Virus record (IMG/VR): IMGVR_UViG_2909303794_000005
Length of the DNA stretch: 37,179 nt
Direction: 5' to 3' (one strand)
Origin: a virus
Taxonomy: Duplodnaviria; Heunggongvirae; Uroviricota; Caudoviricetes
Shown: positions 4,224-37,179 of the stretch, piece by piece
Layout of the letters: every line of letters starts with the position of its first letter
How positions within the stretch are numbered: the first letter of the stretch is position 1
Program-made: the position numbers and the translations under genes
The notes under the pieces: model-generated
What the model was told of the DNA's origin: nothing
Seen by the model: only the letters and a program-made list of their open reading frames with translations
Database searches by the model: none

Positions 4224-4378
4224 AGTAGTTTCCTCTAAAATAATAAGCTCACTACTATTTATTAGAGAAAATTGTCTTACTATTGCATTCTCTATCTGAA
4301 TGTGTATAATACGCGACCCTAAATCCCAAACCAACCATATTGAGGTTATGCCTATAAGTTAAAAAAAGTGAGGTCTAT

Positions 4379-8092: not shown

Positions 8093-8371
8093 TTATTTTT
8101 GTTTGAGTATGTCGAGAACTTGGTCAAATTTGGCGTCCATCGCAACCACTTTCTTCTCTATACCGTGTAGTGTTTGTTCCATTTGGTAAACACGTTCAGC
8201 AATCTGAGTATGGTTGTTCTGCATCGTCTCAAACTTCTGGTTTAACAATGCGTCGCTGGATTCCAATTTCGACAATCTATTTTCAGTTGCTAATTGATTT
8301 CGGTGAAGTCTCCAAAGACCACCGCAAATTAAGGCGATAACACCGATACCGCCATATATAATTTCAGTCAT
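8093..8371 (-). CDS. membrane-anchored coiled-coil protein (lysis-associated candidate, i-spanin- or holin-like)
   Basis: RBS GGGGGCG upstream; N-terminal hydrophobic helix GGIGVIALICGGLW followed by heptad-like coiled-coil sequence. Confidence 0.45.
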   Translation of the reverse strand: MTEIIYGGIGVIALICGGLWRLHRNQLATENRLSKLESSDALLNQKFETMQNNHTQIAERVYQMEQTLHGIEKKVVAMDAKFDQVLDILKQK

Positions 8372-18440: not shown

Positions 18441-18472
18441 CAATAAAAAAGCCCCACCATTAAGGCAGGGCT
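18441..18472 (-). terminator. rho-independent terminator after putative tail tube gene
   Basis: Minus-strand AGCCCTGCC TTAA TGGTGGGGCT (G-U wobbles in RNA) followed by TTTTTATTG. Confidence 0.6.
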
Positions 18473-18603
18473 TATAATTAATCTTTAGCCTTGCGGCTTC
18501 GTTTAGCTGTGGCTTTCGCCGTAACAACCTCTAATTCTGGAATCACCACCGCTTCATGTTCCGGCTGTGGTTCCGGTTCTATTAAAGGAAGTTCTTCGTT
18601 AGT

Positions 18604-19080
18604 TCATCCGGCAGTATTGAAGATTTCCTGTTTCAGCGGTTTGCCGTCCACTGCAAAGGTAAACTCTTTAGTTACCACTTCTTCATCGCCACCGTTCATA
18701 GCAACTTTAGAAATAAAGCCGTTGAAAGCGGTGCGAATACCAGTCTGTTTTGCTGCGTCAACGTAATATTCTACTTTAATCTGAATACGAGTACCGTCTT
18801 CGGCAGCTTTGATCAGTTTTTCATGTACCGCATCGCCTGGGATGTAGTTAACGGTCAGAGTCAGATCAGGAACGTTCAGCTTCCCTACCAGTTTACGGTT
18901 ATACTGAGAAGAGAAGGATTTAACTTCTACAGTACCGCGTTCGATAGCAGTTTCCGGGAATCCGGCGCACTCTTTAATTTCTTCATAGCCCTCATGGTTG
19001 AGAGCGGTGTTAGTGGTATCGGCGTGATAGAACAGACTTACCAGACCACCAGTAAAAATATCTTTAAATTGCTGAGACAT
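18604..19080 (-). CDS. putative major tail tube protein
   Basis: RBS AAGGGG upstream; 158 aa; followed by a strong terminator and a conserved readthrough extension shared with the capsid gene (see findings). Assignment is by position and expression signals, not by a recognised motif. Confidence 0.45.
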   Translation of the reverse strand: MSQQFKDIFTGGLVSLFYHADTTNTALNHEGYEEIKECAGFPETAIERGTVEVKSFSSQYNRKLVGKLNVPDLTLTVNYIPGDAVHEKLIKAAEDGTRIQIKVEYYVDAAKQTGIRTAFNGFISKVAMNGGDEEVVTKEFTFAVDGKPLKQEIFNTAG

Positions 19081-19110
19081 AGAATTACCCCTTAATTAAA
19101 ATTGTTATTA

Positions 19111-19129
19111 CGGGGGAACTAGTCCCCCG
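19111..19129. terminator. GC-rich hairpin after tail fibre gene
   Basis: CGGGGGA ACTAG TCCCCCG inverted repeat between the fibre stop and the next RBS. Confidence 0.35.
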
Positions 19130-19136
19130 ACTTTTA

Positions 19137-22100
19137 TTATTTAGTTGCTTTGAGTTCGGCAATTTCTTTCTGTAATGCTTCGATCTGGGCTTTATATTTG
19201 GCGTCCATTTCCTGAATAGCTTTAATAATCAAGGCATTAACAGCGGAGTTAGAAATTGTTAAGATCTCTTCTGGCTTATCTGGATCTCCGATCTTTGAGG
19301 TTGTTACTGCTTCCGGCAATTCTTTTTCAAGATCCTGAGCAATAATACCAACTTCATGAGCAATGACAGTACGGTCGGTTAAAGACTTAACCTTATCGTA
19401 GGTGTACACAGTCAAGCGATTAATTTTATCGGTTGCATTCTCTTTATACTCTTCCTTGTTGATTTTAAGGCGAGCATCAGAACGAATATACACATCGTTA
19501 AAGTTACCATTGCGACCAGCTTGGAAATCACCGGAGGCGTTAAAGTCAAAGTTTGTGGTATGAATATGAAGACGTGCCATAGCATTAGTAATAACACCAC
19601 TAGGAACGTGTACACCCATTGCTGCGATGTGGTCTAAACCCCATTTGGTCGCTTTCCATACGTTATATGCGGAAGTTTGAGCATTAGGACAATCAACCAA
19701 TAAGCCAGCAGCGCGAGTTTTCCATTCTGACCATGCACCACCTTGTACTTCTCCGCGAATCAAACCACGGTCGCTACCGTTTGCATACCCACGTTCTAAG
19801 CGAATCATACCAGTCTGGAAAACATGGTCAAATTCTCCGCTGTTATAGTTTCGAATGCGCATTTGACCTGTGCTATCACCCCAGATAACACCACGGTTAG
19901 TACCATTAGCATCCTTAAACCAGAGTTCTTTATTACCATCTCTATACATCTGAATTTGGTTATTGGTACGCAAAACATTAGTAACCACCAAATCACCATT
20001 TATCTGAGCACGACCACCCGTTTCTAAACTACCAGCAACTCTGAATTGAATCGAACCGTTAGAATCACGCTGAGAATATAGATGATAGCTTGTTTCGTCA
20101 GCAAGTTCCCACACCTGAGCGCGAGAAGTTCCATTACCCCAATTCTTAATAAAAAATCTAGATGCAGATCCTTCGCTACGTTCCCAATATAATCGAGACC
20201 CTAAATGTGTTGTTGCATTTATTTCTACTTGACGATTTTCATTGTTGAGACGCATTAAATGATTACCAGCATCACTACCACCTAGTGTAACGTTACCATT
20301 GGCTAGGCTATAGATGAACGGCCTAAAGGTATTCCACGGACCCATAGTGTCGCCTGATTTTGTGCTCATCAGATAAACGTTACTACCGTCATTTCGCCAC
20401 CATGAACCATAGTTACCATATACAGTACGGAAGCCATCAGCATATAAAGAAATGAATTGACCGTTGGTATAGACTCGCTTCATGTTACCTGTCTGAAATT
20501 CGATCTGTCCGTCGATATGTTGACGAATAGAACTGCCACCTACATCGCTATACCATTCAAAAACGTTAGTATCAGCATTGGCATAACCGATCCAACCTTG
20601 ACGCGTAATATTTCCAGTCCGGTTATCTTGAAACGCAATGTGGTTAGATTGACCAGCAGGTCGGCGTAGTGTAATGACATTAGATCCGCCATTTAACAGC
20701 ATACGACCAGAAATAATATTACCCTTATGAGTTCCGGCAATTGAGCTACTAGATTCAATAGTCATAATTTCCTGAGCATCAGTGCTACCAGTAGCCAGAC
20801 GATAGCTGGCACCTTGAACAGTCTCATGCCAGATCATTTCATTATAGTTACTACGGAATTTACGAATATATTTTCGTCCAGTACCCCTATCATTACTCAA
20901 GTGAACAATATCATAACTGTTTTGTGTGTTATCGTCAAAACTCAACACACCACGTTTATTTTCAGTATTAAAAAGAGTTACGTTGCGACCACCGATAACA
21001 CCAACGGAAGGTTTAATTAACGTGGCTTCCGGCGTATCATAAACCGTCAAACTTACATAAACAGATTTCCCATATTCGACAATAACGTTATCGGTATAAC
21101 GCTGATATTTCACGTAGATATCATAGTTATCACCGGAAGTATTGACAGCAAATACCTCAAAATCTTTGTTTGTATTTCTACGGTATGCAATTACGTTAAG
21201 ACCTTTAGGTCTATCGTTACCACTACGCAGAAGAATTTCTACTACGTCAACCTGATCATATGCCGTAACGTTGTAACCATTACCACCATGAATACGGAAA
21301 AACACACTACGCCCGTTTTGTGGAATTGTTGCGGTTGCCAATTTGAAATATGCAGATACGTTTTCGCTAGAATTAGGAACAGACATAGTGACGTTTTTAA
21401 CAAACATCTTGTCAACTTCTGCTTTAGTGTATGCACCGATTTCGCCAGGAGTCGGCTTATCACCTTCGTGATACATCTTATAGCTAAAGTTCTTCTGTCC
21501 TTCTCTATCAAAACCATAGGTTTCAACACGAGATCCACCAGACGCATAACGGAAAGTAAATCCGCGACCGTGAGCTTTACCGGCAGAGTGAGGAACGTTA
21601 AGAGTTAGATCCATGAGTCCATCTTGACCATTGGTACGGAAAGCACCAAAGTAGTTAAGATCTCTCGCTGTCTGGTCTTCCAAATAGTTAGCTGTTTTGG
21701 TTAACAGATACCCGCCGTGCTTAGTGTTGGTATTCTTCTTGATGTAAAGAGCATCGTTACTACCTTCAATACCATCAATTCGACGGTTAGCGGCTGCGAT
21801 CGCTGAATCAGTATCAGTTTTGTTTTTGTCAACCTTTGCGTTAATAGCGGTATGGTTGCTATTCACCGTCCCTGTAAGGTTACTGATTTTAGTATCAGCA
21901 TCGCGTTTATTGTTCGCTACCGTAGTTTCAATGGCTGATTTGTTAGCTGCAACGGTACTCGTTAAGCTGGAGATCTTGGAATCAGCATCAGACTTGTTAG
22001 CTGTAACGGTTTTGGTCAGATTGCTAACATTGGTGTTAGTGGTATCAACACGGCTATTGATCGCGGTGTTATTGTCATTAACCGTCGTGGTTAAAGCTGC

Positions 22101-22577
22101 GATTTTATTGTCCGCATCTCGTTTATTATTTGCTACAGTAGTTTCTATAGCTGATTTGTTAGATGCAACTGTCCCCGTAAGGTTATTGATCTTAGTATCA
22201 GCATCGGTTTTATTTGCCGTGACTGTCTGGGTTAAGTTACTAACCGTGGTGTTAGTAGCATCAATGCGCTTATTGGTCGCTGTATCTTTCGTGGTAATAG
22301 TCTGATTCAGTTCAGCTTTAGCACTAGCCAGATTATTAGCGGCTTCTTGTTTGTTGGAAGCAATAACACGGTCAGTGCTAGTTTTGTTATTGTCTACTTT
22401 AGTGTTAAGTTCAGCGTGTTTTTCTGGAGAAACACTAATTTGGACTACGTTATTATTTTTGTCTTTGGTGTAAATCACATGATCCGCCAACTGTAAGGCG
22501 ATTTCACCCTGTGATAATTGTTCCGGCGTTGGCTTTTTACCAGCCGTCTGTGTGCGTTTAAATTGGATCGACTGCAT
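19137..22577 (-). CDS. tail fibre with C-terminal intramolecular chaperone (peptidase S74-like) domain
   Basis: RBS GTGAGGTGA upstream; 1146 aa; C-terminal SDARLK...LTDRTVIAHEVGIIAQDL...AVNALIIKAIQEMDAKY resembles the self-cleaving chaperone domain of T5 L-shaped fibre / endosialidases as recalled. Confidence 0.8.
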   Translation of the reverse strand: MQSIQFKRTQTAGKKPTPEQLSQGEIALQLADHVIYTKDKNNNVVQISVSPEKHAELNTKVDNNKTSTDRVIASNKQEAANNLASAKAELNQTITTKDTATNKRIDATNTTVSNLTQTVTANKTDADTKINNLTGTVASNKSAIETTVANNKRDADNKIAALTTTVNDNNTAINSRVDTTNTNVSNLTKTVTANKSDADSKISSLTSTVAANKSAIETTVANNKRDADTKISNLTGTVNSNHTAINAKVDKNKTDTDSAIAAANRRIDGIEGSNDALYIKKNTNTKHGGYLLTKTANYLEDQTARDLNYFGAFRTNGQDGLMDLTLNVPHSAGKAHGRGFTFRYASGGSRVETYGFDREGQKNFSYKMYHEGDKPTPGEIGAYTKAEVDKMFVKNVTMSVPNSSENVSAYFKLATATIPQNGRSVFFRIHGGNGYNVTAYDQVDVVEILLRSGNDRPKGLNVIAYRRNTNKDFEVFAVNTSGDNYDIYVKYQRYTDNVIVEYGKSVYVSLTVYDTPEATLIKPSVGVIGGRNVTLFNTENKRGVLSFDDNTQNSYDIVHLSNDRGTGRKYIRKFRSNYNEMIWHETVQGASYRLATGSTDAQEIMTIESSSSIAGTHKGNIISGRMLLNGGSNVITLRRPAGQSNHIAFQDNRTGNITRQGWIGYANADTNVFEWYSDVGGSSIRQHIDGQIEFQTGNMKRVYTNGQFISLYADGFRTVYGNYGSWWRNDGSNVYLMSTKSGDTMGPWNTFRPFIYSLANGNVTLGGSDAGNHLMRLNNENRQVEINATTHLGSRLYWERSEGSASRFFIKNWGNGTSRAQVWELADETSYHLYSQRDSNGSIQFRVAGSLETGGRAQINGDLVVTNVLRTNNQIQMYRDGNKELWFKDANGTNRGVIWGDSTGQMRIRNYNSGEFDHVFQTGMIRLERGYANGSDRGLIRGEVQGGAWSEWKTRAAGLLVDCPNAQTSAYNVWKATKWGLDHIAAMGVHVPSGVITNAMARLHIHTTNFDFNASGDFQAGRNGNFNDVYIRSDARLKINKEEYKENATDKINRLTVYTYDKVKSLTDRTVIAHEVGIIAQDLEKELPEAVTTSKIGDPDKPEEILTISNSAVNALIIKAIQEMDAKYKAQIEALQKEIAELKATK
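19140..19481 (-). other. intramolecular chaperone domain of tail fibre (predicted autoproteolytic release)
   Basis: Begins at the Ser of IR-SDARLK (residue about 1033); domain boundary inferred from the family motif. Confidence 0.55.
21831..22265 (-). repeat. in-frame tandem repeat in tail fibre N-terminal shaft
   Basis: Two near-identical 72-73 aa units (DATNTTVSNLTQTVTANKTDADTKINNLTGTV... and DTTNTNVSNLTKTVTANKSDADSKISSLTSTV...) with about 24 aa sub-periodicity. Confidence 0.6.
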
Positions 22578-22606
22578 CGAATCACCTCACTATAAAACAG
22601 GAATAA

Positions 22607-22624
22607 GGGAGGCGTTAACCTCCC
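22607..22624 (-). terminator. GC-rich hairpin after the 277 aa structural gene
   Basis: GGGAGG CGTTAA CCTCCC, followed on the minus strand by TTATTCCTGTTTTAT. Confidence 0.4.
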
Positions 22625-22654
22625 AACGTTCATGTTTTATTTAGGTAAGCAATC

Positions 22655-23488
22655 TTAATACTCACCGAAATCGATCCGGTCCGTCTTAGCCACTGCGCCA
22701 ATTTCGCTAGGTGTCGGTTTCTCATTGGTGGAATATACCTTGATCCATTCAGAACGACCGTTTTCCTGAATATTTCGGACACGTAAACGCGGTGCGCCAG
22801 AAGTATTACAGGTTAATTGCCATGCGCCATGCTCATTAGCTTGAAGATGAATTAACGATGTATCAGCACCATAAGGGTTAGTGCTAGCCGTTCCTTTGTA
22901 GGTTACGAAACGGTTTCCTGCTAATGCCTCGCTATCAATACCGCCCGTGAATGGATGTACACCAGCACCGATACCAAAATCACCCTGACGTAAGATACGG
23001 CCTTCGGTAGCAATACCCCTTGCCAAAATCCCGCCATCTGGTTCAAGTTTAAATTCCAGTGTTACAGCTTTGTTATCACTACCACGGGTTTTATGTGATG
23101 TGACGTAAGCATCATAGATGACATAGTAACCAGTGTTAGCAGCACTATAGCCAGAGTTCACAACATAGAACATACGGAAGCGTAAAGGTGTTTTATCCTC
23201 TACCGCTTTCATCAACATTGCTTGATGTTCATCGTCAAGAACACGGTTTAACGTGAGTGTTGTCGGTTCCAGTCTACGATAACCAGCAAGTTTCCCCGTA
23301 GCGTCCTGATCGTACTCTTCCAGAGTTTCTATCTCTGTGGATTCTGTTAGCGTAGGGAATGCTGCGACGTTCTCAATAGAACTAAAGCTAGGATCGAAAA
23401 AGTCGACCTGATTGTCTAGCTGGTTAGAGATTGAAATCTCTACATGGCTTCCAGTAAAAATATCTAAGTTATCATGCGTAATATTCAT
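22655..23488 (-). CDS. virion structural protein with fibre-like C-terminal motif
   Basis: 277 aa between connector genes and the tail fibre; C-terminal NEKPTPSEIGAVAKTD echoes KPTPGEIGAYTKAEVD inside the fibre. Confidence 0.4.
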   Translation of the reverse strand: MNITHDNLDIFTGSHVEISISNQLDNQVDFFDPSFSSIENVAAFPTLTESTEIETLEEYDQDATGKLAGYRRLEPTTLTLNRVLDDEHQAMLMKAVEDKTPLRFRMFYVVNSGYSAANTGYYVIYDAYVTSHKTRGSDNKAVTLEFKLEPDGGILARGIATEGRILRQGDFGIGAGVHPFTGGIDSEALAGNRFVTYKGTASTNPYGADTSLIHLQANEHGAWQLTCNTSGAPRLRVRNIQENGRSEWIKVYSTNEKPTPSEIGAVAKTDRIDFGEY

Positions 23489-26392: not shown

Positions 26393-27904
26393 TTAGGGAT
26401 CGGCTGGGGAATTTTTTTCTTCATCCTCGCCATTAACGATAATATTTAGTGCGCTCTTTTCGGCTTGAATCTCTGAGAATACTTTTTCAGGATCATCACC
26501 ACGTTCTAATATAACGGCAGTACGTGATTTAAGTCCGTTATCAATTAAAGCAATCTCGGCGCTTACGTCTTTAAATGGATCGACGGATTCAAAACGCGGA
26601 CGAATAATAGTAGTGTTATCGATAATATGCGGGATTGCAGTAATACGAATCGGAACAATACCACGCGCGGAATAATGGCGTAGATATGCTTCGAAAATGG
26701 GCGACACCACTGTTTCAATCAATTTGTTTTGCAGTGCTTTAACGCGGTGTCGTTGCATTAAATCACCGAATCTACTGGCGCTGTAGTTTATTTGTGAACA
26801 ATCTCCTGTTAAGCCCTGTTTGAACACGCCTAAGCCCATTGATACGCTAGTAAACATCGCATCATTGAAGGAATTGAAATCATCGCCTGATTGAGTAGCT
26901 TGGATTGATTTAATCGTTGCCCCTTCCGGTAATTCCTGAATAGTACCAGGTGCAAAATCCTGTACTACTTCCGGCGCTTGATATTGTTCATCCTCTTCAC
27001 CAGTATCAAAATCGTCACCAGAATCTTTCGGACGTTCGATAAAGCCCATAGAACTAGCCGCAATACGTTTCTGGATAATTGCAGTTTCGCGGAATGCGTC
27101 TTGATGTGCGATATCCTTGATCACTGGCAGGAAGTCAGTCACACCACGCAGGGATTCGGCTGTAAGTGGTTGATAATAATGGCATACTTGCGATGCATCT
27201 ACGCGATAGTTATCACCTGTGTAAGTCTGAGTCAGTAGGTTGATTTTACGAAACCAGTATGCTACTGGCTTCATTGTTTCTACGTCATACTCGATCCCCT
27301 GATAGATAGCACGTTCTTTGCTTACTTCACGGTTTAGCGACCAGTCGCACTTATCAGCAGACAGGATAGAAACATTTAACTCATTGTTTTCTTTGGTTAA
27401 AACGATGAAGCACTCACCACCCATAACGCGCTCACGTTCAGCCATTACCAGCAGTTCACGGAAGTTAAAGCGACCGTTACGAGAGAAGCGTTTAGCATTC
27501 TGCGCCCACTTCCAGAAAGCATTCTCGATCTGCTTATTCAGTGCGCTATCAAGTTTGCCATTTGGTTTAACAACTGACGGCTTCGGATCTAGGCCACCAC
27601 CGACCACCATATCGGTGATGTATTGCGTGTAGCGACTGCCTACGGAAGTGTTTAAGGCCAGAGTACGACCCTGATCATAAAGGCGCTTACCGTTCGATTT
27701 GAGAGCCTTATTGAAGGTTCCTGTAATGGTGTCTTGTTGAAGCGATCCATCAATGCGATCACCCACCAGACCTAAACTACGCTTAGACAAATCTTTCTGG
27801 TATTTTTCTATAGATTTGTCGATGAAAATTTTTGGTTGTTGCTGGCGGTGATTAGTTTTAACTGGAGTTTCTACCGCCTTTTTGCGTCGAAAAAGATTAA
27901 ACAT
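26393..27904 (-). CDS. portal protein (lambda gpB-type)
   Basis: 503 aa immediately downstream of terminase and upstream of protease/capsid; overall resemblance to lambda-family portal proteins. Confidence 0.8.
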   Translation of the reverse strand: MFNLFRRKKAVETPVKTNHRQQQPKIFIDKSIEKYQKDLSKRSLGLVGDRIDGSLQQDTITGTFNKALKSNGKRLYDQGRTLALNTSVGSRYTQYITDMVVGGGLDPKPSVVKPNGKLDSALNKQIENAFWKWAQNAKRFSRNGRFNFRELLVMAERERVMGGECFIVLTKENNELNVSILSADKCDWSLNREVSKERAIYQGIEYDVETMKPVAYWFRKINLLTQTYTGDNYRVDASQVCHYYQPLTAESLRGVTDFLPVIKDIAHQDAFRETAIIQKRIAASSMGFIERPKDSGDDFDTGEEDEQYQAPEVVQDFAPGTIQELPEGATIKSIQATQSGDDFNSFNDAMFTSVSMGLGVFKQGLTGDCSQINYSASRFGDLMQRHRVKALQNKLIETVVSPIFEAYLRHYSARGIVPIRITAIPHIIDNTTIIRPRFESVDPFKDVSAEIALIDNGLKSRTAVILERGDDPEKVFSEIQAEKSALNIIVNGEDEEKNSPADP

Positions 27905-27914
27905 GATTTACCCC

Positions 27915-28412
27915 TTATCGCGTAAGACGTAATTTGATATTTTTAATCGGGCTAATTCCCTGTTTACGTCGTTCGGCTTGAATTAATTTTGATAACTGAC
28001 GTTCATAATCGACTTTTAGAGTCTGGAGAACAGCCAATGACTCATAGGCGAAAGTATTCCCTTTCACTGTCATTTGAGATAATGCGGCTTCGTCCCCAGA
28101 TAAACGGGCGAAAATAACTTGCTCGATTAAGGCGATAGTTTCCCGCAGATATTCTTTTTTGGATTGTTTGGCGAATACTGGCAAAACAGTTAATTCCTGC
28201 ATTGATATCAGTTCATCATCCAAAGTTGTTACGATGGTATATTTACCTTCGGCAAAATCTAAGGTTTTAATCTCATGATTAGCCGGAGAATCATCAACCT
28301 GATAAATGATACCTTTATTACTATTTCCTACCTGAATTGTTACACCCTCTTCATTCGCCAGCGTGACTTTTTCGCCTTTACGAATTACTAAGGGAATTAG
28401 TTCTAAACTCAT
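27915..28412 (-). CDS. hypothetical head protein (lambda gpW position)
   Basis: 165 aa between large terminase and portal; no motif recognised. Confidence 0.35.
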   Translation of the reverse strand: MSLELIPLVIRKGEKVTLANEEGVTIQVGNSNKGIIYQVDDSPANHEIKTLDFAEGKYTIVTTLDDELISMQELTVLPVFAKQSKKEYLRETIALIEQVIFARLSGDEAALSQMTVKGNTFAYESLAVLQTLKVDYERQLSKLIQAERRKQGISPIKNIKLRLTR

Positions 28413-28484
28413 AATTACCCCTTATTTAATTGTTATTGGATTAACAATATTTAGGAGTAAGCCGCCCCGAAGGACGGCGAGTTA

Positions 28485-30392
28485 TTAGAACGATGTTACC
28501 CAACTACGGCCTCTATTTGGACGTCTGGCGATGTTTTTACGTTGTGGTCGTGTGATTGGCTTAGTTTCTTCGATTTGCTCGTTAGATTGCGATTTAGGAG
28601 CTTCTACGGGTTCTTCGACAACACGGTTTAAGCTGTCTTTCATTGCAATGAGTTTATCCCATGACATTTTTGAAAGGACGTAGCGAGAAGCCGCTGTAGC
28701 ATACACGGCGCAGTCGAGCGCCTCGTTTCGTGTCGCACCTGGATTTTTTACCCATCTCACGCCAGTAGTAGTACGCTTAACAGATTCACTTAAAAGCTGA
28801 TCGAGATAATCATCAGGAACGGTGTCTGATATTTCTAAGGCAATATGAGGATTATCTTTCAGGTTCCTAGCCAACATTTCACGAAATGCAGTTTTACCCA
28901 CGTTAACACCCAACATAAGCAATTCATGACCACCTGTGCGGGTAGGTTTAACCGGAATGATCGGAGCGTTACCAGCAGAACTACCTTTGATAGCGTGTAA
29001 GTTCTTCCACTTGCCGCAAATACGGTATCCAGCTTGAGTGAATCGACCGTTCGATGTATCAAGGAAGCTGGCGAGCATAGGAACACGATCACCCGATACA
29101 GTAGTAAATTTGGTTTTATGGAAGTTGATTAATCTATCCCATACAGGGGATTCATATCGTTCACAGTTATGATCGTAAAAGCTACGGTGATCCAGAATGT
29201 AAACCTTATCTTTCGCTACACCTAAGATGGTAGTTTCTGCGCGATCTAATTGCTGGTCAGTACCCGCACATAAGAAAATCACGTCATCAGGGATATTCTC
29301 GATAGAAACATCTGTTTTGAGTTGTTCCAGTTCATTTGCTTCTACTGCCGTGTCCTGATCGTCGTATACCTTACCTAACACGGTGTTATAAAATGATTGT
29401 AAATCAAAGGATTGCCACGCATGACTAAAATCAACCACACAAGCGCGGATACTACTGAAAGGTGAATACAGACGGCTAATCCAGAATCCTGCTACCTCAC
29501 TTTCACGGGTTGCTCTCCACTCTCCTTGTGCTACTGCCCTGATTCGTTCCCCTTCTGTCCATGCGTTCTTACAGTGGGGGCAAATATAACGAGCGGTATC
29601 AGGATCGGGTAAGTTCTTACCATCGATGTTACGCCATTCAAATTGAACGTTTTCCCACTCGATCACCTGGTGTTCCCCGCAATGAGGACACGGAACAAAA
29701 AACATACGCATATCGCTTGATAACCATTGCTGGTTAATGCTTCCCAGCTTACTGGTCGGGGTACTGGATACGACTAATCGACCTTCATCGCCAAAGGTAG
29801 TTAAACGGTTAGCAGCCAGTGCCACCGGATCACCTTCTTCTGAGGCTGTAGCAGCATCGATTTCGTCAAGCAATCCAACCTTTGCGGTCTTACCACGTAG
29901 GGTCGATGGACTGGTTAGCGATACCATGTAAAGGAAGTGATTCGTTTTTAGCTGGAGTTGGTTATTGTTGTTAACCGCATTGCGATCATTCTTGTCTGTA
30001 ACAACGTCTTTTAATGCATCACATGCTTCGATAGACGGTCGGATCTTACCAGCGAGATATTGAGACATTTCTTTAGCGGTTGATTGTCCGATAATCATAT
30101 TGCATGGATCGTTAGCCATCTGGTTAAACAGGATGCCGTTCAGGATGGTAGTCTTTCCGATCTGCGCACTGGTCATCAGAACATACTTTTTCTTATTCTC
30201 AAGGAAAGGAGCATCAATCATGCCTTTCTGGAATGACAGCAATTTAACTTTATCCCCAGCTTGAGGACCATCTACCAGCACCATATTCGCTTCGCACCAT
30301 TCCGATGGAAGGAGTTTAGGCGGTGGCGTAATATATTTGGCTGCATTTCTGAGAATCTTTTTTAATTTGGCCTTATTAGAAATCAGTTTCAT
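28485..30392 (-). CDS. terL: terminase large subunit (lambda gpA family)
   Basis: Walker [10 protein letters not shown], paired CPHCGEH...CPHCKN zinc-finger typical of GpA-type terminases, C-terminal nuclease region; RBS GAGGGT upstream. Confidence 0.9.
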
Positions 30393-30477
30393 GTAATTAC
30401 CCTCATTACGAAATATGAAGGTATTTATTAAATTGTTGATATTTTGATAAATACGGGTATTAATTAAAGGGGGTTGT

Positions 30478-31080
30478 ATGCTAATTAATCAGCAACAAAG
30501 AGATGAATTAGAATTAGCCTTGTCTTGTACCGATCATGAATATCGTTTGCCAGTTAAGCATAAGCATTTAAAAACCGACTACACTACATCTGGCTTTAGT
30601 CGTGAGGAAGCGAAAGAGATTTTAATAGAATTTTACCGCGATAATGGTTATACAGACGTTCACAACTTCTTTAAGAAGCATAGAACATCGCATACAGAGT
30701 TTCGGAGAGTCCGAGATTGGTTTGATTTTGATATCAAGCGTTATTATCGCATTGATGACGGTCCTATCTATCGGTTGCAGTGGAAGCCGATCCGAGAAGT
30801 GTTGAAACAGAAGAGATTGAATCACGCAATTACACGCTATCGTAACGAGGCTTTCAAGAAAGGCTATGGTGATACAAGGGAACTATTCGTTGAACTCGCT
30901 AACGTGCGTTATAGCCACTATTACAACGATCCTAAAGGGTTCTTTGAAGTGCTTCGCAAGGTTGATATTAGTCGGGGTACATACTATTCACGGTTGAAGA
31001 AGTACGGGATTAAGGCAGAGTTCTTTATGTCGGTTGACGATGGAGAACTTTTTCCTATAAAATGTAAGTCCTCTAAATAA
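30478..31080 (+). CDS. hypothetical DNA-binding protein with C-terminal HTH-like motif
   Basis: RBS AAAGGGGG; C-terminal [15 protein letters not shown] resembles the HTH of the two small proteins at 31116 and 34720. Confidence 0.45.
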
Positions 31081-31115
31081 AGGTGAACATTCACTTTAAT
31101 TTGGAGAAAATGACT

Positions 31116-31343
31116 ATGACTACTAAAGCTACTCGCGGTCGCCCTGCCCGTTTTAACGCTGAACAGATGGCTGATATTGCCTACGCTTACTATACAGCGG
31201 ATCGTGGTAAGGAAGCGAAAGAACAGATTCTTAGTGAACATGGGATCTCAATCGCCCAATTCTATAAGAATATGAAGAAGTTAGACATTAAATTCTATGT
31301 TCAGATCGGTGATGGTCAGATCGTAGAAGCAACAGGTTTTTGA
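31116..31343 (+). CDS. small AT-hook/HTH DNA-binding protein
   Basis: ATG 31116 has better SD spacing (GGAG 9 nt upstream) than in-frame ATG 31110 or GTG 31083; KATRGRPARF (AT-hook-like) and GISIAQFYKNMKKLDIK (IS3 OrfA-like HTH). Confidence 0.5.
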   Translation: MTTKATRGRPARFNAEQMADIAYAYYTADRGKEAKEQILSEHGISIAQFYKNMKKLDIKFYVQIGDGQIVEATGF

Positions 31344-31358
31344 GTTTTGATTCTCTTT

Positions 31359-31382
31359 GCCACTCTTCGGAGTGGCTTTTTT
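31359..31382 (+). terminator. rho-independent terminator
   Basis: GCCACTC TTCG GAGTGGC (UUCG tetraloop) followed by TTTTTTG. Confidence 0.7.
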
Positions 31383-31473
31383 GTATGTAAAACAATCTCG
31401 CCAGTTTTGGTGAGATCTATAGATGCCCTCAAAATTGAGGGGATGTACTCAACTCTGAGCGCATCTACAGATA

Positions 31474-31499
31474 CAAAAAAGCCCCTGAAATTCAGGGGC
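31474..31499 (-). terminator. rho-independent terminator after Rha-like operon
   Basis: 9 bp arms GCCCCTGAA / TTCAGGGGC followed on the minus strand by TTTTTTGTAT; the arm sequence is the same motif as the 34017-34201 iterons. Confidence 0.55.
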
Positions 31500-31507
31500 A
31501 AAAATTA

Positions 31508-32338
31508 TCACAGTCCGAAGACTTCCAGTGATCCAACATTCTGGCGGAGACGTTCAGCTGCTTTATTTTGAATCAGAATAGTGTTGTTCGGCTTAGGAAG
31601 ATTCAGAGTTGCTTTTTGTTCTTCTTCCAGAACACCCAATTCAACCAGCACCGGAAGCACATCAACAGTAAACTCAAGCTGGTAGTGAGCATTCATGCGG
31701 CAGAAAGACAGAGAAGAGTCATTAGCAACATACCCACACGGCTTGTTATTTTCATCATAGACGCGCTCAATGTAGCCAGCAGTACGCAAGGCCGTCAGTG
31801 CTTCTTTAACCTTCGTAGCGCCCTTTTTAGCGCCTAACAGACGTGTCATAGAATGGCTATCTACGGATTTGCGAATGTGTAGCTCAATCAGTTTTTTATT
31901 TTTGCGTTTTTCATCTAATGCCAGTTCGATCCAGTCTGTTTCTTCAAAGTGTTCATATGGATTAACCGGAACATTAGCTTTACCTTCTTTCATCAAACGC
32001 CATTCTTTAGCAATTTTGAAGCGAAGCGGTGCATCGTATCCCATAACCAGAGTATTACAGAGATCTTCATCCAGTTCATACATCGGGCGAGATTGATTAT
32101 TCTTATCAAAATATGAAGATTCTACAAAATACCCCAGCGCAAAATTGCGCCCGGCTAATTCGCTTCCTTTTTCAAGAGAATCAATCATGCGACGAAAATC
32201 ACGCATAACATCTTTATGATTCTTTCCGGTCAATTCAGCAATCTGACGGGTAGACATGGTCAGCGGTTTGGTGTTATCAACAACCAGAGACACGGAAGCA
32301 GTTTTAACAGCAGTATTCATAGTAGTAACAGTATTCAT
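31508..32338 (-). CDS. Rha-family phage regulatory protein (antirepressor-like)
   Basis: N-terminal TMSTRQIAELTGKNHKDVMRDFRRMIDSL matches the Rha-domain pattern as recalled; RBS AAGGGGA upstream. Confidence 0.7.
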   Translation of the reverse strand: MNTVTTMNTAVKTASVSLVVDNTKPLTMSTRQIAELTGKNHKDVMRDFRRMIDSLEKGSELAGRNFALGYFVESSYFDKNNQSRPMYELDEDLCNTLVMGYDAPLRFKIAKEWRLMKEGKANVPVNPYEHFEETDWIELALDEKRKNKKLIELHIRKSVDSHSMTRLLGAKKGATKVKEALTALRTAGYIERVYDENNKPCGYVANDSSLSFCRMNAHYQLEFTVDVLPVLVELGVLEEEQKATLNLPKPNNTILIQNKAAERLRQNVGSLEVFGL

Positions 32339-32427
32339 AGTATTAATTCCCCTTAAACGGTTTAATGATTTGGTCCTCCTAGTTCCGGCAGCATCACCGG
32401 AACAATTTTATTTATAATAGAAATTTA

Positions 32428-32760
32428 TTACCAATCGATTTCTACTTGGTCTTCTTCATAATAAGGAATCGCATATTCATAACGCCAGTTTTCGATGATT
32501 TCACGTTCTTCATTAGTAAGAAGGTGATTGCTAACTGGAGTCGCATTGTGATTACCAGCTTCGAATTGTTCGCGAACTTCCAGCATTGCATGAATACCAG
32601 TTAAGGACATCAGATCAAACGGAACATGCATACTACGGGAGATTGTTTCACGGGATACGCCCCAATCATTTTCTACATGGCTAGGGCTTACAGAAACGGT
32701 TTTGCCGGAGATTTTAACAGTCCAGTCATACAGGGATTTAGTGATGGTAAATTCTTTCAT
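32428..32760 (-). CDS. hypothetical protein
   Basis: RBS AAGAGGA upstream; 110 aa; first gene after the promoter/operator at 32817-32858. Confidence 0.45.
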   Translation of the reverse strand: MKEFTITKSLYDWTVKISGKTVSVSPSHVENDWGVSRETISRSMHVPFDLMSLTGIHAMLEVREQFEAGNHNATPVSNHLLTNEEREIIENWRYEYAIPYYEEDQVEIDW

Positions 32761-32816
32761 GTTACATCCTCTTTACAAATCTAGGTCAAATAGGTTCAAA
32801 GTTGTCAAGTGCGATA

Positions 32817-32845
32817 ATCATAAAAAAGTCAGAAAATTTTGTCAA
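32817..32845 (-). promoter_or_regulatory. sigma70-type promoter (minus strand)
   Basis: Minus-strand TTGACA, 17 nt spacer, TATGAT; about 55 nt upstream of the 32760 start. Confidence 0.5.
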
Positions 32846-32858
32846 TACCCCTTGACAA
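32839..32858. promoter_or_regulatory. palindromic operator-like site overlapping the -35 element
   Basis: TTGTCAA TACCCC TTGACAA, perfect 7 bp inverted repeat; more TTGAC/GTCAA half-sites at 32790-32880. Confidence 0.45.
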
Positions 32859-32880
32859 GACGCCAAAGGGTTGACCTAAC

Positions 32881-33333
32881 TTACAGCATATCTAAGCCTT
32901 CATCGTAACCGTAGAAGCCATTCTGAGAAGAGAAACAGATTGGCGCGTAGTCGTCGTCATCTTCGTCTTGTTCATCTCGTTCTGGGGCTTCCTGAGCGGG
33001 TTGTTTACCATAATCAGCCATAATCTGGTCAAGATCGGCGATCCCATAGTAAGAGCCTAAATCAACGTCATATTCACGAACATCAAACGGCAGGTCATCA
33101 CGAACAATAATTGCCGGAATGTTGTTGTATTGTTCACGACCTTCATCAGTAAAGCAGTCTACGATCACCGTAGGGCGACCATTACGTTTAAGAGCATAGA
33201 AAGCAGTTGAGAAATTGGAGTCTTCGGAATGACGAATGATGTTATAACCACGATTAGCGAAAACATGCATCATAGCCAGATTATCATCATGGTTCAGACC
33301 CAGAAGAATGAAAGGAGTTTTAGTATTGATCAT
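32881..33333 (-). CDS. hypothetical acidic protein
   Basis: RBS AGAGGA upstream; 150 aa with Asp/Glu-rich C-terminal region. Confidence 0.45.
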   Translation of the reverse strand: MINTKTPFILLGLNHDDNLAMMHVFANRGYNIIRHSEDSNFSTAFYALKRNGRPTVIVDCFTDEGREQYNNIPAIIVRDDLPFDVREYDVDLGSYYGIADLDQIMADYGKQPAQEAPERDEQDEDDDDYAPICFSSQNGFYGYDEGLDML

Positions 33334-34016
33334 AGTGGAAATCCTCTAAAAAGTGAATCAAAGTAAGTTCACTATTATTTATAACGAGAAATTTTTGTCT
33401 AATTTGAAAGGAATTGGTATTCAGTCGGCTTCGCCTCCTTCATAGATTTTGATTAAATCATCATCAAAACGAAGAAGTATCTTTAGAATATAAGAATCTT
33501 TCTTTTGGAGAAATAATAATCCGGAAGCAATTTAGCAACCGAAGGTTGCAATCCCGAAGGGATACCAATACCTTTCATGATCATTAAAGTGATCTAGAAT
33601 CATCTAGTAACCAGTTAACTACTATTATCTTCAAAGTGATTATTACTATCTTTCTAGAATCAGTTAGTAACTAGTTTAAAATCCCTTTCAAGAAAATCCT
33701 TTCAAAAGTGATTCTCGATGCCACGCAGTGGCGTCGCAGACGTTTGAGAGTGAGCGAAGCGAGCGAGCAAACTAGTTAATTCCTTCTAAGACCATCTAGT
33801 ATCATCTAGTTTAAATTAGTGTTACTAGAAGTAATTGGTTAGCGCTTCGCGCAGTCGGGCTACGCCCTCCTAATATCTTTTTGGTTATTTGTTGTTTTTG
33901 GTTTTACACATGAGCGTAGCGAATGTGTTATATAATATCTATGCACGCCCGATTCCCCGTTTTTGCCCCTCACTAAGTTAATGTTTTATAAAGAGTTTTT
34001 CTTACCAATCCTTTTC

Positions 34017-34201
34017 GGGGGCAAATTTCAGGGGCAAAAATTAGATTTTCAGGGGCAATTATTGGCATTTCAGGGGCAAAAATGAGGGGCAAAATCACCG
34101 TTTCCCAGAATTTCAGGGGCAAAAATATTGGGTTTCAGGGGCAAAAATGGGATGTGGAATCTAGGGTATTTTGGTTCAGGGGCAAAAATTCAGGGGCAAT
34201 T
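34017..34201 (+). repeat. iteron array: 9 direct copies of (TTC)AGGGGCAA(AAAT)
   Basis: GGGGCAA cores at 34018, 34031, 34052, 34073, 34086, 34116, 34138, 34179, 34193, spaced 13-41 bp; an inverted copy at 33961-33969. Confidence 0.8.
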
Positions 34202-34240
34202 TTCATAGTGTAGGGCTAGTGTAGGTTTGAAAATCCTTTG

Positions 34241-34298
34241 TTGACACTGTGTAGGATCGGTGCTACACTTGACAATTAGAGAAAAAATGTGGTATAAT
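34241..34298 (+). promoter_or_regulatory. tandem strong sigma70 promoters
   Basis: TTGACA (34241) -17- TACACT, and TTGACA (34269) -18- TGgTATAAT (extended -10, 34290-34298). Confidence 0.65.
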
Positions 34299-34662
34299 AT
34301 TTGTATTGAAAGTGAAAATTTACCGATTTTCCTTCCTATTGTTATCACCGTGTTAAATTGTTATATGTCTGTGAAGATTTGGATCTGAGAGAAAATCTTG
34401 TAACAAATCTTTACAATTCATAGCTCAATTAATGCTCACCGCTTTAGCAAAAAGTGCTATGCAATTTTCTAAATTGATTGAATAAACATCAATTTGGTTA
34501 ATTCGTGTTCTTCTCTTTAGCAATTCGTGCTGCGGTTTAACACATTTAACACGTCTGATAACATCTGAATAACATTTTAACATATCTCTGTTATAAATAC
34601 ATATATAAGAGATAAATGTGAGGGGTTGAAAAATAAAATACAATCCCCATATAAATAATAGT

Positions 34663-34683
34663 GAGCGGTTAACGCTCTTTTTT
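34663..34683 (+). terminator. weak terminator/attenuator before the 34720 gene
   Basis: GAGCG GTTAA CGCTC followed by TTTTTT, located before the AGGAGG RBS. Confidence 0.45.
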
Positions 34684-34719
34684 AAGAAATCATTAATCCA
34701 CATTGTAGGAGGATTCGAG

Positions 34720-34902
34720 ATGGCACGACCTGTTAAGTTCACTCGCGAAATCATCTTAGAAATGGCTAAACGCTACTTTGAGTTAACGCCGGGTGTGAGA
34801 ATTGAAGAGTGGTTTAAAAATGAGGGTATCGATAAATCAACCTTTCATAAACTCTTAAAGAAGTATGACATTAAAGTAAAGATTACCGCCGAGGTCTGGT
34901 AA
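34720..34902 (+). CDS. small HTH DNA-binding protein (paralogue of 31116-31343)
   Basis: Strong RBS AGGAGG 7 nt upstream; MARPVKF...NEGIDKSTFHKLLKKYDIK parallels RGRPARF...HGISIAQFYKNMKKLDIK. Confidence 0.5.
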   Translation: MARPVKFTREIILEMAKRYFELTPGVRIEEWFKNEGIDKSTFHKLLKKYDIKVKITAEVW

Positions 34903-34944
34903 TAACCTTTCACTGAGAATTATATGATGGCTTTAAAAATAAAA

Positions 34945-34978
34945 AAGCCTCCCTTGTTGCAGCAAAGGAGGCTTTTAG
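34945..34978 (+). terminator. rho-independent terminator
   Basis: AAGCCTCC ... GGAGGCTT stem followed by TTTT. Confidence 0.6.
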
Positions 34979-35021
34979 CATGAAACATTAAAACTAACAC
35001 AGAGTATTCAGGAGTATTTAT

Positions 35022-35963
35022 ATGTTATTTTCCGCTAACTTTTTCACTAACGAAGTAACCAACGCTAAAGCAGTTATCAAATTTGGCACCGAAGCAAACA
35101 AGAAGATTCAGCCGAAAGTTGTTGCTCATGTTTCCTTTGCACAGCAGAAATCCGCTTTCGCTGGCTTTAAAGCACATCGTGAAGCACTGATCGCGGCTGG
35201 CTTTGGTGTTGACGGTAAACTGCCTAACGGCATTCGTAAAGCAATCGACCGCGTTAAACCTGCTAAAGACGTTGCAGTAGACCACATCGTTACTTTTACC
35301 GTTAAGAACTCTTCTGAACTGTTCCACCTGGTTATTGCTGGTGATACTGCTATCGTTTCCGCTCCTAACATGGATTTTCAGGATACCGCTGATTGCCAGA
35401 TCACCTTCGGTCGTCGTAAAGAAGTTACCGGAAAAGCTAAACTGAACTTCACTAAATCCGGCAATCCTTACTTTGCTGTATTCTTTAACAGCCACGCTAC
35501 CGAAAAAGAAGTTGTAGAACTGGTTGCTTATGAAGGTGAAGAGAAAGAACGTATTGAATCTTGCGAAGCATTTCTGGAACTGGAAGCACAGGTGAATGCT
35601 GTTTCTCCTGTTGTAGAAGATCGCTTTGCTGCACTGGAAGCACAGATCGCAGAACTGAAAGCTGCGCTGGAAGAAAAAGACCAGATTATCGAAGCCCAGA
35701 AAGCTGAAATTGAAGAACTGAAAGCTAAAGAAGTTGCTCCGGTGGCAGTAGTTGAAAATGCGGCTGATGAGGCCGCAAATGATGAAGTAGAAGTGAAAAT
35801 CGATGTGATGCGTGATCCGATGGCTGCACTGCAATTACTTCGTTCTTTTAAGGGCAAATCTCATTTTTCTAGTGATGTAGAAGATGAGGAAGAAGAACAG
35901 AAACGCAATGCTGCAATGCTTCATGATGAAATGTACGGTACTAACTTTTCTTACTGCCAATAA
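35022..35963 (+). CDS. acidic coiled-coil protein with host-like (high-expression) codon usage
   Basis: RBS AGGAG 8 nt upstream; 313 aa; heavy use of CTG, CGT, GCT, GGT, GAA, AAA codons unlike the AT-rich surrounding genes; Ala/Glu-rich heptads and acidic C-terminus. Confidence 0.6.
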   Translation: MLFSANFFTNEVTNAKAVIKFGTEANKKIQPKVVAHVSFAQQKSAFAGFKAHREALIAAGFGVDGKLPNGIRKAIDRVKPAKDVAVDHIVTFTVKNSSELFHLVIAGDTAIVSAPNMDFQDTADCQITFGRRKEVTGKAKLNFTKSGNPYFAVFFNSHATEKEVVELVAYEGEEKERIESCEAFLELEAQVNAVSPVVEDRFAALEAQIAELKAALEEKDQIIEAQKAEIEELKAKEVAPVAVVENAADEAANDEVEVKIDVMRDPMAALQLLRSFKGKSHFSSDVEDEEEEQKRNAAMLHDEMYGTNFSYCQ

Positions 35964-35966
35964 AAA

Positions 35967-35986
35967 AGGGACTCCGAAGAGTCCCT
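35967..35986. terminator. bidirectional terminator hairpin
   Basis: AGGGACTC CGAA GAGTCCCT, preceded by an A-run and followed by T-rich sequence. Confidence 0.55.
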
Positions 35987-36060
35987 AGTAAGTTTAGGTT
36001 AGGTTGCACAACAAAGATGAGGTTATAATGAACATAATGCTACATTATCTAGTAAAGCCA

Positions 36061-36087
36061 GAAAAATAACCGCCCCTTTCGAGGCGG
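36061..36087 (-). terminator. rho-independent terminator (minus strand)
   Basis: Minus-strand CCGCCUC GAAA GGGGCGG (GNRA loop) followed by TTATTTTTC. Confidence 0.55.
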
Positions 36088-36245
36088 GAGGATTAATACT
36101 CAATCTATACTTGTTATGTTTTTATGTTGTATAGTCACTGACTATGAAAACACTGTACTGAATGTGTTTTATGGCTTTTAATCGGGAACTCTCTTTCGAA
36201 AATTCCCTGTTAAAACCACATAAGGAGAAATGGCAGATTACAATA

Positions 36246-36530
36246 TTATTTAGTCTGTTTGAAAACAAACGTTAAAAATTCGATTAAGCAATATACCCAG
36301 CATACAGTAAGCAGTAGATGCATAGAAATAGCCGGATGGAAGTTAAAAAGTGTCATACTAACTAGACCAACAATATAAGAAATCCCTTCGACAATTAAAG
36401 CTAGACTAGAAAATGCAACAAACGCACCTAAGAATAATTCAGCACGTTCTCGATTTTCGGTTCCGAGTTTATAAGCAGAAATAACAGCCAGAATAGTAAT
36501 GATGACAGCATAGGTAATAAAAGTAGCCAT
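36246..36530 (-). CDS. small membrane protein with three predicted transmembrane helices
   Basis: RBS AAGAGGA upstream; 94 aa with three hydrophobic stretches of about 20 residues. Confidence 0.45.
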   Translation of the reverse strand: MATFITYAVIITILAVISAYKLGTENRERAELFLGAFVAFSSLALIVEGISYIVGLVSMTLFNFHPAISMHLLLTVCWVYCLIEFLTFVFKQTK

Positions 36531-36556
36531 AGTTTTATATCCTCTTAAAAGTTAAG

Positions 36557-36575
36557 CGGGGGAGAACATCCCCCG
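36557..36575 (-). terminator. GC-rich hairpin after terminase-small-like gene
   Basis: CGGGGGA GAACA TCCCCCG, same hairpin family as 19111-19129. Confidence 0.4.
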
Positions 36576-36624
36576 TAGACGTTGACCCGTTCAACATCTT
36601 TCATACATTTATTTATAACGCGTT

Positions 36625-37179
36625 TTAAGACACATCAAATTCATCGTCTTCTTCTGGTTCTTGTTCTTCCGGTTCATCCATTAATGGTAATTCTTCTTCC
36701 TCGTCTTCTCCCAAATCTGCATTTTCGAACAAGTCCCCTACTTCATTTAAACGACGCTCGATGATCTCCCTTAGCTTATTCTTCAATGTTTTCTGATCAG
36801 TGGCAGATTCAAGAATTTCTAAAGCGTCGATTGTGGCGATCTGCAAAATAGTCTGTTTCACCTTCCCGCAATATTCCGCTAGTTCCTGTTCTACATAACC
36901 GACCGGAATCAGGAGATTCATTGCTTCCTGGTTCTCTCGTTCGGCTGCATCCGCTAATGCTCTCTCACGGCGTAATTTCTCTACGTCGATTTGTTCCTTG
37001 ACAGTAGTTTCTTTAAGCGGGTTGATAATATTTTTCAAGACCCATTCTGTTCCTTCTTTGGCTGGCACGCGTCGTGTATTGGTATTAAATGGCATTCCTC
37101 GTTCTTGCCATTTCTTAGCGGCGTTGATTGTATAGCCGTATAAACGGGAAATTTCTGTAAGGGTTAATTCTTCTTTCAT
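36625..37179 (-). CDS. terminase small subunit-like protein (Nu1-type HTH); start at or beyond window edge
   Basis: N-terminal LTLTEISRLYGYTINAAKKWQERGMPF then EKLRRERA resembles lambda Nu1 (winged HTH, W.E.GMP) as recalled; acidic C-terminal tail. Confidence 0.55.
   Translation of the reverse strand: MKEELTLTEISRLYGYTINAAKKWQERGMPFNTNTRRVPAKEGTEWVLKNIINPLKETTVKEQIDVEKLRRERALADAAERENQEAMNLLIPVGYVEQELAEYCGKVKQTILQIATIDALEILESATDQKTLKNKLREIIERRLNEVGDLFENADLGEDEEEELPLMDEPEEQEPEEDDEFDVS

Follow-up and report, generated by a model that had tools for sequence, protein, structure and literature searches.

The provirus IMGVR_UViG_2909303794_000005 (Caudoviricetes), analyzed here over its whole length of 37,179 nucleotides (the window), is a serine-integrase prophage of ~37.6 kb in full, integrated in the host gene ycdX. 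It carries a gpA-type large terminase gene (terL) and, at the extreme prophage end, ~364 bp from the attachment (att) junction, a Nu1-type small terminase gene (terS). The two lie on the same strand, are separated by a gap of 6,232 bp and belong to separate predicted transcription units. An earlier note, made from the sequence alone, had drawn attention to same-strand Nu1-like and gpA-like genes ~6 kb apart, with helix-turn-helix (HTH) proteins, a Rha-like operon, an iteron array, a membrane protein and opposing units between them; all of these are present where it placed them, the membrane protein as a probable one. It is likely, in our judgment, that a genuine Nu1-type small terminase (TerS) has been uncoupled from terL in the lineage of ycdX prophages, with the phage's own early block lying between the two genes. 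The features of the region, with lengths of proteins in amino acids (aa), are the following:

26393-28412, minus strand: head-tail joining protein (165 aa) and lambda-type portal (PHROG 5774 and PHROG 21)
28485-30392, minus strand: terL, gpA-type large terminase of 635 aa, first gene of the head-tail-lysis block, which runs to 6470
30393-30477, no strand assigned: 85-bp divergent intergenic region; from the gene orientations, the terL late unit must begin here and the promoter of p200 must lie here too
30478-31080, plus strand: p200, two copies of the hth60-type domain, divergent from terL
31083-31343, plus strand: p86, a paralogue of hth60
31359-31376 (plus strand) and 31499-31481 (minus strand): convergent terminator pair closing p200-p86 and the Rha operon, each followed by TTTTTTGTAT
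31508-32338, minus strand: Rha-family gene (Phage_pRha)
32428-32760, minus strand: p110, unknown protein
32881-33333, minus strand: p150, unknown protein
33401-33374 and 32845-32817, minus strand: promoter-like sites of the p150-p110-Rha operon
33593-33811, plus strand: second repeat family, TCTAGAATCATCTAGTA in four copies (D4/D5), in the noncoding control region
33961-34202, plus strand: iteron array, nine direct copies and one inverted copy of (A/G)GGGGCAA(A/T)(A/T), directly upstream of the consensus promoter
34269-34298, plus strand: sigma-70 promoter with perfect 12/12 consensus (TTGACA, 18 nt, TG-TATAAT), facing hth60-p313
34303-34690, plus strand: structured leader of ~390 nt from the promoter to hth60, terminated just before hth60 by a hairpin and T-run at 34663-34685
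34720-34902, plus strand: hth60, small HTH-like protein of 60 aa
35022-35963, plus strand: p313, no family assignment
36087-36070 and 35986-35967, minus strand: terminator hairpins ending the terS-mem94 (minus) and hth60-p313 (plus) units
36246-36530, minus strand: mem94, hydrophobic, probable membrane protein of 94 aa, downstream of terS in the same predicted unit
36625-37179, minus strand: terS, Nu1-type small terminase of 184 aa, assigned by PHROG 57, a profile against lambda Nu1, and synteny

The large terminase (TerL) possesses both domains typical of its family, namely Pfam GpA_ATPase (1.4e-56; 192.4 bits against a cut-off of 25.6) and GpA_nuclease (1.1e-45; 156.5 bits against a cut-off of 22.5), and is a member of PHROG 15 (1.5e-139). 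The joining protein and portal follow directly after it, an order that is kept in the IMG/VR relatives L042-L047 (fetched loci are given by their L numbers) and in Escherichia phage DCP80.

The position of terS relative to terL was compared across loci by tblastn of the window proteins against 47 fetched loci and, for 80 fetched gpA-type terL loci, by searching the open reading frames (ORFs) with hidden Markov models (HMMs) of the TerS and TerL families. The ycdX lineage, represented in E. coli, Salmonella and another enteric, with TerS identities of at least 53% and all members integrated in ycdX, shows a terS-terL gap of 5.8-8.6 kb and an identical module order in 38 of 38 loci. Outside it, the TerS family is detectable in 45 loci and is always found just upstream of terL on the same strand, with gaps between -95 and +883 bp: ten, the closest, overlap with terL, and the 35 others lie at most 883 bp away. 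The overlapping forms comprise L042-L047 from IMG/VR (TerS 35-38% and TerL 39-40% identity), in which terS abuts terL, and L055-L058 (TerL identity 38-41%); by HMM envelope the two genes overlap by 68-95 nt in these loci; in L042 and L044, where the start codon (ATG) of terL falls within the 3' end of terS, the overlap is ~110 nt by ORF coordinates. A terS gene placed directly upstream of terL and co-oriented with it is thus what the ycdX lineage lacks, the gap being 6,232 bp here. Because the 45 outside loci are adjacent and all the ycdX-lineage loci are split, the split is, judged by gene order, derived, confined to one lineage and stable there; the comparison bears out the view that the arrangement is unusual for a Nu1/gpA pair.

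Megablast of positions 28000-37179 and of L044 against the phage collection returned no close relatives, and a scan of a genome-contig collection with the TerS alignment gave no confirmed match. The only relative among deposited phages is Escherichia phage DCP80 (L001, PQ671644.1), with 45% TerL identity. This 141-kb record is classed as T4-like: its first ~26 kb (1-26300) are related to the prophage and are followed by T4-like genes such as motA, and it looks like a chimeric assembly. In DCP80, terS stands after the lysis genes and does not adjoin terL, which is preceded by at least 1.7 kb; since the record looks chimeric with a T4-like genome, the true circular order is not readable from it.

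All the regulators found in the genome, and its one origin-like element, lie in the 6.2-kb block between the two genes; in the rest of the genome (integrase, cargo, lysis, tail and head regions) there is no other regulator, replication gene or TerS. The units of the block alternate in direction: p200-p86 (plus), p150-p110-Rha (minus), a noncoding stretch, hth60-p313 (plus) and mem94 (minus). Three paralogous small HTH proteins, p86, hth60 and p200, are built from one ~55-aa HTH-like domain: in BLASTP hth60 matches p86 with 4e-8 and the two halves of p200 with 4e-4 and 0.066, and it has a weak match (0.0015) to Pfam HTH_Tnp_1. The p200-p86 unit is conserved in all members of the lineage. The Rha protein is recovered by Pfam Phage_pRha (1.1e-17; 64.8 bits, cut-off 29.9) and TIGR02681 (8.9e-13; 48.3 bits, cut-off 45.95), as well as by the PHROG anti-repressor/Rha families. 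No family was found for p313 in Pfam, PHROG or NCBIfam, and its homologues among the matches listed are only near-identical proteins, all named hypothetical. The gene mem94 occurs in only some relatives and its product matches no family. The noncoding part, ~1.4 kb at 33334-34719, has no convincing ORF.

Terminator-like sites are enriched in the region (14, against 4.7 +/- 2.2 in shuffled sequences) and stand at unit ends, in agreement with the multiple terminators of the earlier note; the hairpin at 35986-35967 comes directly after the p313 stop codon. The strong promoters that it also listed fare less evenly: one site is a perfect 12/12 sigma-70 promoter, but promoter-like sites as a class are not enriched (12, against 19 +/- 5 in shuffles). 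The leader downstream of this promoter (34303-34690) has a minimum free energy of -100.7 kcal/mol, against -66 +/- 5 kcal/mol in shuffles (z -6.9), and holds a conserved long-range inverted repeat, TGTTATCA...GTTAAAT / ATTTAAC...TGATAACA. A conserved RNA gene at this place was considered and dropped, the alignment fold having a positive covariation term and few compensatory pairs; a search of 30000-37179 against Rfam gave chance-level matches only, and none for the leader.

Repeats and coding sequence change together in the middle of the block. The p313-bearing loci have 7-11 copies of GGGGCAA in 20 of 20 cases and the loci without p313 have 0-1 copies in 17 of 17, a co-occurrence of 37/37. 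Where p313 is missing, other genes with different iterons are seen at the same position (L015, L022, L041), for instance eight copies of CCCTACACTA at ~22-bp spacing in L015 and TCCCCG at 11-bp spacing in L041. An array of direct repeats beside a gene that varies in step with them is a trait of iteron replicons. We therefore read the iteron-p313 pair as an origin/initiator or an operator/repressor (immunity) cassette, with p313 as a candidate iteron-binding initiator or immunity protein. Between the two, we favor a replication origin, because the conserved part of the phage holds no other replication function: its sole helicase (4939-6438) is in a cargo block that some relatives lack. The AT-rich control region also has scattered short GC-rich hairpins at 33540-33870 with GAAG/GCGAAGC-type loops, such as gcaaccgaaggttgc and cccgaaggg; similar hairpins, without detectable sequence similarity, occur in the 1.3 kb upstream of terL in DCP80.

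These contents bear on whether the 6 kb is instead an accessory island of foreign origin, or a series of morons, dispensable to the phage, that landed between a once-adjacent terS and terL. That adjacency is the norm in the family does imply that something was interposed at some time, and the block has variable cassettes (mem94 and p110 present or absent, p313 replaced, extra genes in L006 and L050) and a noncoding part with the lowest G+C content in the window (0.355-0.372); across the block this content is 0.355-0.43, versus ~0.40-0.44 elsewhere, and is low in the noncoding part only. However, all 38 members of the lineage carry the block with its order unchanged, even where TerS identity falls to 53%; it contains neither integrase nor transposase, and a region-wide repeat scan showed no flanking repeats; the phage's only regulators and origin-like element sit in it; and its variability is allelic, a protein changing with its matching iterons, as in phage immunity and replication regions. 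Since it lacks a recombinase and is present throughout the lineage, the block is not a recent island. The explanation is improbable, and the inserted island proposed in the earlier note is not sustained.

A second alternative questions the protein rather than the block: the Nu1-like protein might be mainly a site-specific DNA-binding regulator, possibly a recombination directionality factor for the serine integrase at attP, and no packaging subunit. Its gene lies ~364 bp from the att junction and is predicted to be transcribed apart from terL, its product pairs with very different TerL alleles, and its structural neighbors, none of them significant, include the excisionases RdfS and Pukovnik Xis. 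Against this stands its resemblance to small terminases over its length. Residues 1-168 of the terS product align with PHROG 57 ('terminase small subunit') at 2.8e-15, and the L044 orthologue is a match to the same family at 8.6e-21. A profile made from 14 members of the TerS family (profile A2), searched against the PDB, finds lambda Nu1 (6hn7_B, 2.8e-4; 1j9i_A, 1e-3; aligned residues 3-80) and also picks up the Nu1-like N-domain of RppC (3.8e-4). The AlphaFold (AF2) model, with a predicted local distance difference test (pLDDT) score of 71, has a strand-helix-helix-strand unit in residues 1-39, a 50-residue helix and a helical domain, with a disordered acidic tail predicted at residues 156-184. 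Thus, by both profile and model, TerS bears a lambda Nu1-like N-terminal winged HTH, and the helical body and tail beyond it are conserved. The gene is kept by selection, as its ratio of nonsynonymous to synonymous substitution rates (dN/dS) is 0.10-0.22 against six relatives. Its full-length orthologues in relatives overlap terL. No other TerS candidate is present among the window ORFs scanned. Hence the 184-aa protein is very probably, from these comparisons, a genuine small terminase and not merely a regulator, and we give the regulator reading still less credence than the island.

Least credible is a decaying, defective prophage whose odd gene order is a functionless rearrangement scar: an IS1 does lie between tail genes in this copy, most prophage genes are hypothetical proteins in PGAP (RefSeq, one complete genome), and the phage collection contains no isolated phage of this type save part of the chimeric-looking DCP80 record, but the order persists from genus to genus and terS is under purifying selection, the head, tail and lysis gene set is complete, the element is found in 63 of 5,426 complete E. 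coli genomes (~1%), and the contig of one assembly breaks at att, as expected if excised copies exist.

The window is bounded by the ATG of a plus-strand gene at the left and by the ATG of the minus-strand terS at the right; it stops exactly at the terS ATG because the provirus was trimmed at the first and last gene calls. The upstream region of terS and the att junction, ~364 bp, accordingly fall outside it. Both end genes were placed in E. coli chromosomes by exact-protein look-ups: the host flank is ycdY-ycdZ-csgGFED at the left end and truncated ycdX with ghrA at the right. In strain PSJ-22 (NZ_AP027634), a lysogen whose copy is free of the IS1, there are 364 bp from the terS ATG to the ycdX junction, and in L008 the left junction is ~40 bp upstream of the first gene (L008 9960-10000).

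The following scheme would account for the uncoupled TerS and terL. TerS would be made from its own terS-mem94 unit, with a promoter within the 364 bp outside the window, and TerL from the first gene of the late block, transcription of which would start in 30393-30477 or further upstream. Thus, terS and terL would be on separate transcripts and TerS would act on TerL in trans, the two assembling into a Nu1/gpA-type holoenzyme that cuts at the cohesive-end site (cos). We place this site immediately upstream of terS, with moderate confidence; packaged DNA would in that case have the order cos-terS-early block-terL-head-tail-lysis-cargo-int-attP, the 6.2-kb early block consisting of the Rha operon, the three HTH paralogues and the 1.4-kb control region with its iterons, promoter and cognate gene.

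The candidate for cos is GATCGAGGCGGGGAAAGGGG, which is found 95-110 nt upstream of terS in seven fetched lineage loci, outside the window, and has 14 contiguous nt in common with cosL, the cohesive end of 19 nt given in the annotation of P2. The adjacent-type relatives L042-L046 have a related GC-rich core, AAGGCGGGGCGAAAC, at ~75 nt upstream of their terS. Within the window there is no copy of the cos-like core, even at 3 mismatches. The core is allelic and tracks the terS allele, not the terL allele. As a lead and not a result, cos may travel with terS, much as Nu1 of lambda is accompanied by cosN-cosB. In L048 (11263-11282) the P2-cos-like core has a hypervariable spot of 2-3 nt (CC, TC, CT or AT, then G or T), the flanks of which are otherwise identical among the E. 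coli copies, and a conserved palindrome, GGTCGCTACGCGAC, lies ~35 nt further out. Upstream of terS the repeats are phased T-tracts only, with no clear R-site-like repeats.

TerS and TerL are inherited apart in this lineage. At least two allele classes of terL, ~59% identical to each other, are seen in the window and the relatives L002-L007 (the window type and the L002 type), and identical TerS proteins occur with TerL proteins either ~96% or ~59% identical to that of the window; the same is seen in Salmonella. The DNA of the classes is identical through the intergenic region and codons 1-16 of terL (30345-30392) and then diverges abruptly, while the last ~60 residues of TerL are again 94-100% identical: the swap is limited to terL and its neighbors are unaffected. 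Judged by this step in DNA identity, the boundary at codon 16 is a recombination junction. The conserved TerL N-terminus was also considered as a sign of co-evolution with TerS and rejected on the abrupt DNA divergence: since codon 16 is a recombination junction, the N-terminus is not readable in that way. More tentatively, terS and the candidate cos upstream of it might form a free-standing packaging-specificity cassette at the prophage border that reassorts independently of terL, a proposal we think possible but doubtful. If both combinations package DNA, TerS-TerL recognition in this family would tolerate divergence in TerL to a far greater extent than expected from the lambda/21 paradigm; alternatively, recognition would involve nothing beyond the acidic tail of TerS and about 16 residues at the start of TerL.

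Several observations weigh against an uncoupled but functional Nu1-type terminase. In the searches with TerS, Pfam Phage_Nu1 (PF07471) reaches 15.4 bits, below its cut-off of 30; NCBIfam gives no match; and Foldseek of the TerS model against the PDB returns no significant match, the best hits (E >=0.9) being MerR, RdfS, Xis and RppC folds. The pairing of one TerS with TerL alleles only 59% identical is unexpected if their contact is allele-specific. The cos-like core has at least three alleles, and those of L027-L036, L040, L041, L050 and L051 are differing ones. The protein p313 is without similarity to any known initiator, so that the origin step in the scheme stays conditional. The IS1 means that this prophage copy may be impaired, or not fully functional. 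Lastly, nothing relevant was found in the literature on the ycdX prophage or on non-adjacent terminase genes of this kind.

The remainder of the prophage has the following gene map:

1-2974: three small genes and the serine integrase
3048-6438: variable cargo block with two CapR/MUG113 (T5orf172)-domain proteins and a UvsW-like helicase (4939-6438)
6470-28412, minus strand: lysis, tail and head genes
8549-9246: IS1-type transposase genes InsA/InsB (PHROG 1191, 1.9e-55; PHROG 720, 1.4e-78)

The four-gene operon ending in the serine integrase begins only ~40 bp from the left att junction; its promoter is probably located across attP on the terS side, being rejoined to it only upon excision. The cargo block, between the lysis genes and the integrase, is swapped from strain to strain, with other genes at the same place in L009 and L011, and this suggests a defense or anti-defense hotspot at 3048-6438. 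The IS1 site is a local peak in G+C content (0.51) between a 92-aa gene (8093-8371) and the gpJ-like tail tip gene (9280-13029); its counterpart in relatives is only ~105 bp (L008). Within the tail module there are two major-tail-protein paralogues (18604-19080 and 22655-23488), between which stands a 1,146-aa protein similar to the T4 long-tail-fiber distal subunit (19137-22577), and an adhesin-like gene is found at 17923-18429; such a placement within the tail module (17923-23488) is unusual. In a draft assembly of E. coli the whole prophage forms a contig of its own (L050, JAVDCW010000029.1, 37,735 bp), the end of which, 366 bp upstream of terS, roughly coincides with the att site; a break there fits the behavior of assemblers when excised and integrated forms coexist. 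On the host side of the terS junction, ghrA and the truncated ycdX run in the same direction as terS and mem94 (L048 10604-12932), and read-through from the host operon into the prophage end could take place. Given the orientation of terS with the ghrA-ycdX operon, it might be expressed in lysogens. The insertion also severs ycdY and ycdZ from the ghrA promoter.

The uncoupled arrangement is best appreciated beside known systems. Several traits are shared with lambda (Nu1 and gpA, cosN-cosB). The TerL is of gpA type and carries the two Pfam domains, and a joining protein and lambda-type portal come after it; the N-terminal winged HTH of TerS is Nu1-like and is followed by a helical body and C-terminal tail, in part as predicted; and a candidate cos stands just upstream of terS. 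Unlike lambda, where Nu1 and A are adjacent and one late transcript crosses cos, it has terS and terL 6.2 kb apart in different predicted units with an early block between them; further, its TerS falls below the Pfam Phage_Nu1 threshold and its integrase is a serine recombinase. In the map of P2, terS (M, gpM) and terL (P, gpP) are likewise non-adjacent and lie in divergent operons; the P2 terminase proteins are of other families, and only capsid genes lie between M and P. The ycdX lineage thus resembles P2 in its non-adjacent genes and in the 14 contiguous nt of the 19-nt cohesive end upstream of terS, but differs from it in having a whole regulatory and replication-like region between the two, and the cos similarity is absent in some lineage members. 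RppC of the E. coli phage-inducible chromosomal islands (PDB 6hlk/6hn7) similarly has a Nu1-like HTH and a gene apart from any terL; we take it, from the title of PDB 6hlk and established knowledge, to be borne by a satellite without structural genes and to redirect the TerS of the helper. In contrast, the terS described here belongs to a complete phage, and its orthologues include terS genes overlapping terL. Such overlapping genes characterize the adjacent-gene IMG/VR relatives (L042-L047, L055-L058), which have the same TerS and TerL families and the same order after terL, and of which L044 also has a serine integrase; unlike the prophage, with its long acidic TerS tail, they have a basic one (KKDTTSRKNKTK), and no relationship exists between their early genes and those of the prophage.

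The machinery is therefore lambda-like and the gene arrangement alone departs: this is a known packaging type and not a new mechanism, and the gain is a modest one, the packaging machinery being of known kind. It has nonetheless consequences for how such phages are recognized. Annotation pipelines and prophage finders usually seek terS beside terL, and homologues of terS are mostly hypothetical by their source names, as is the gene in PGAP (one complete genome); with terS called hypothetical, the phage appears to lack a small terminase. The arrangement also draws attention to an uncharacterized family of temperate phages that ~1% of complete E. coli genomes carry and in which iterons and protein form a swappable cassette. 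Finally, the lineage is a natural case of separate inheritance and exchange of terS and terL, and could serve to find out how much of TerL has to be recognized by a Nu1-type TerS and whether cos must stay in cis by terS.

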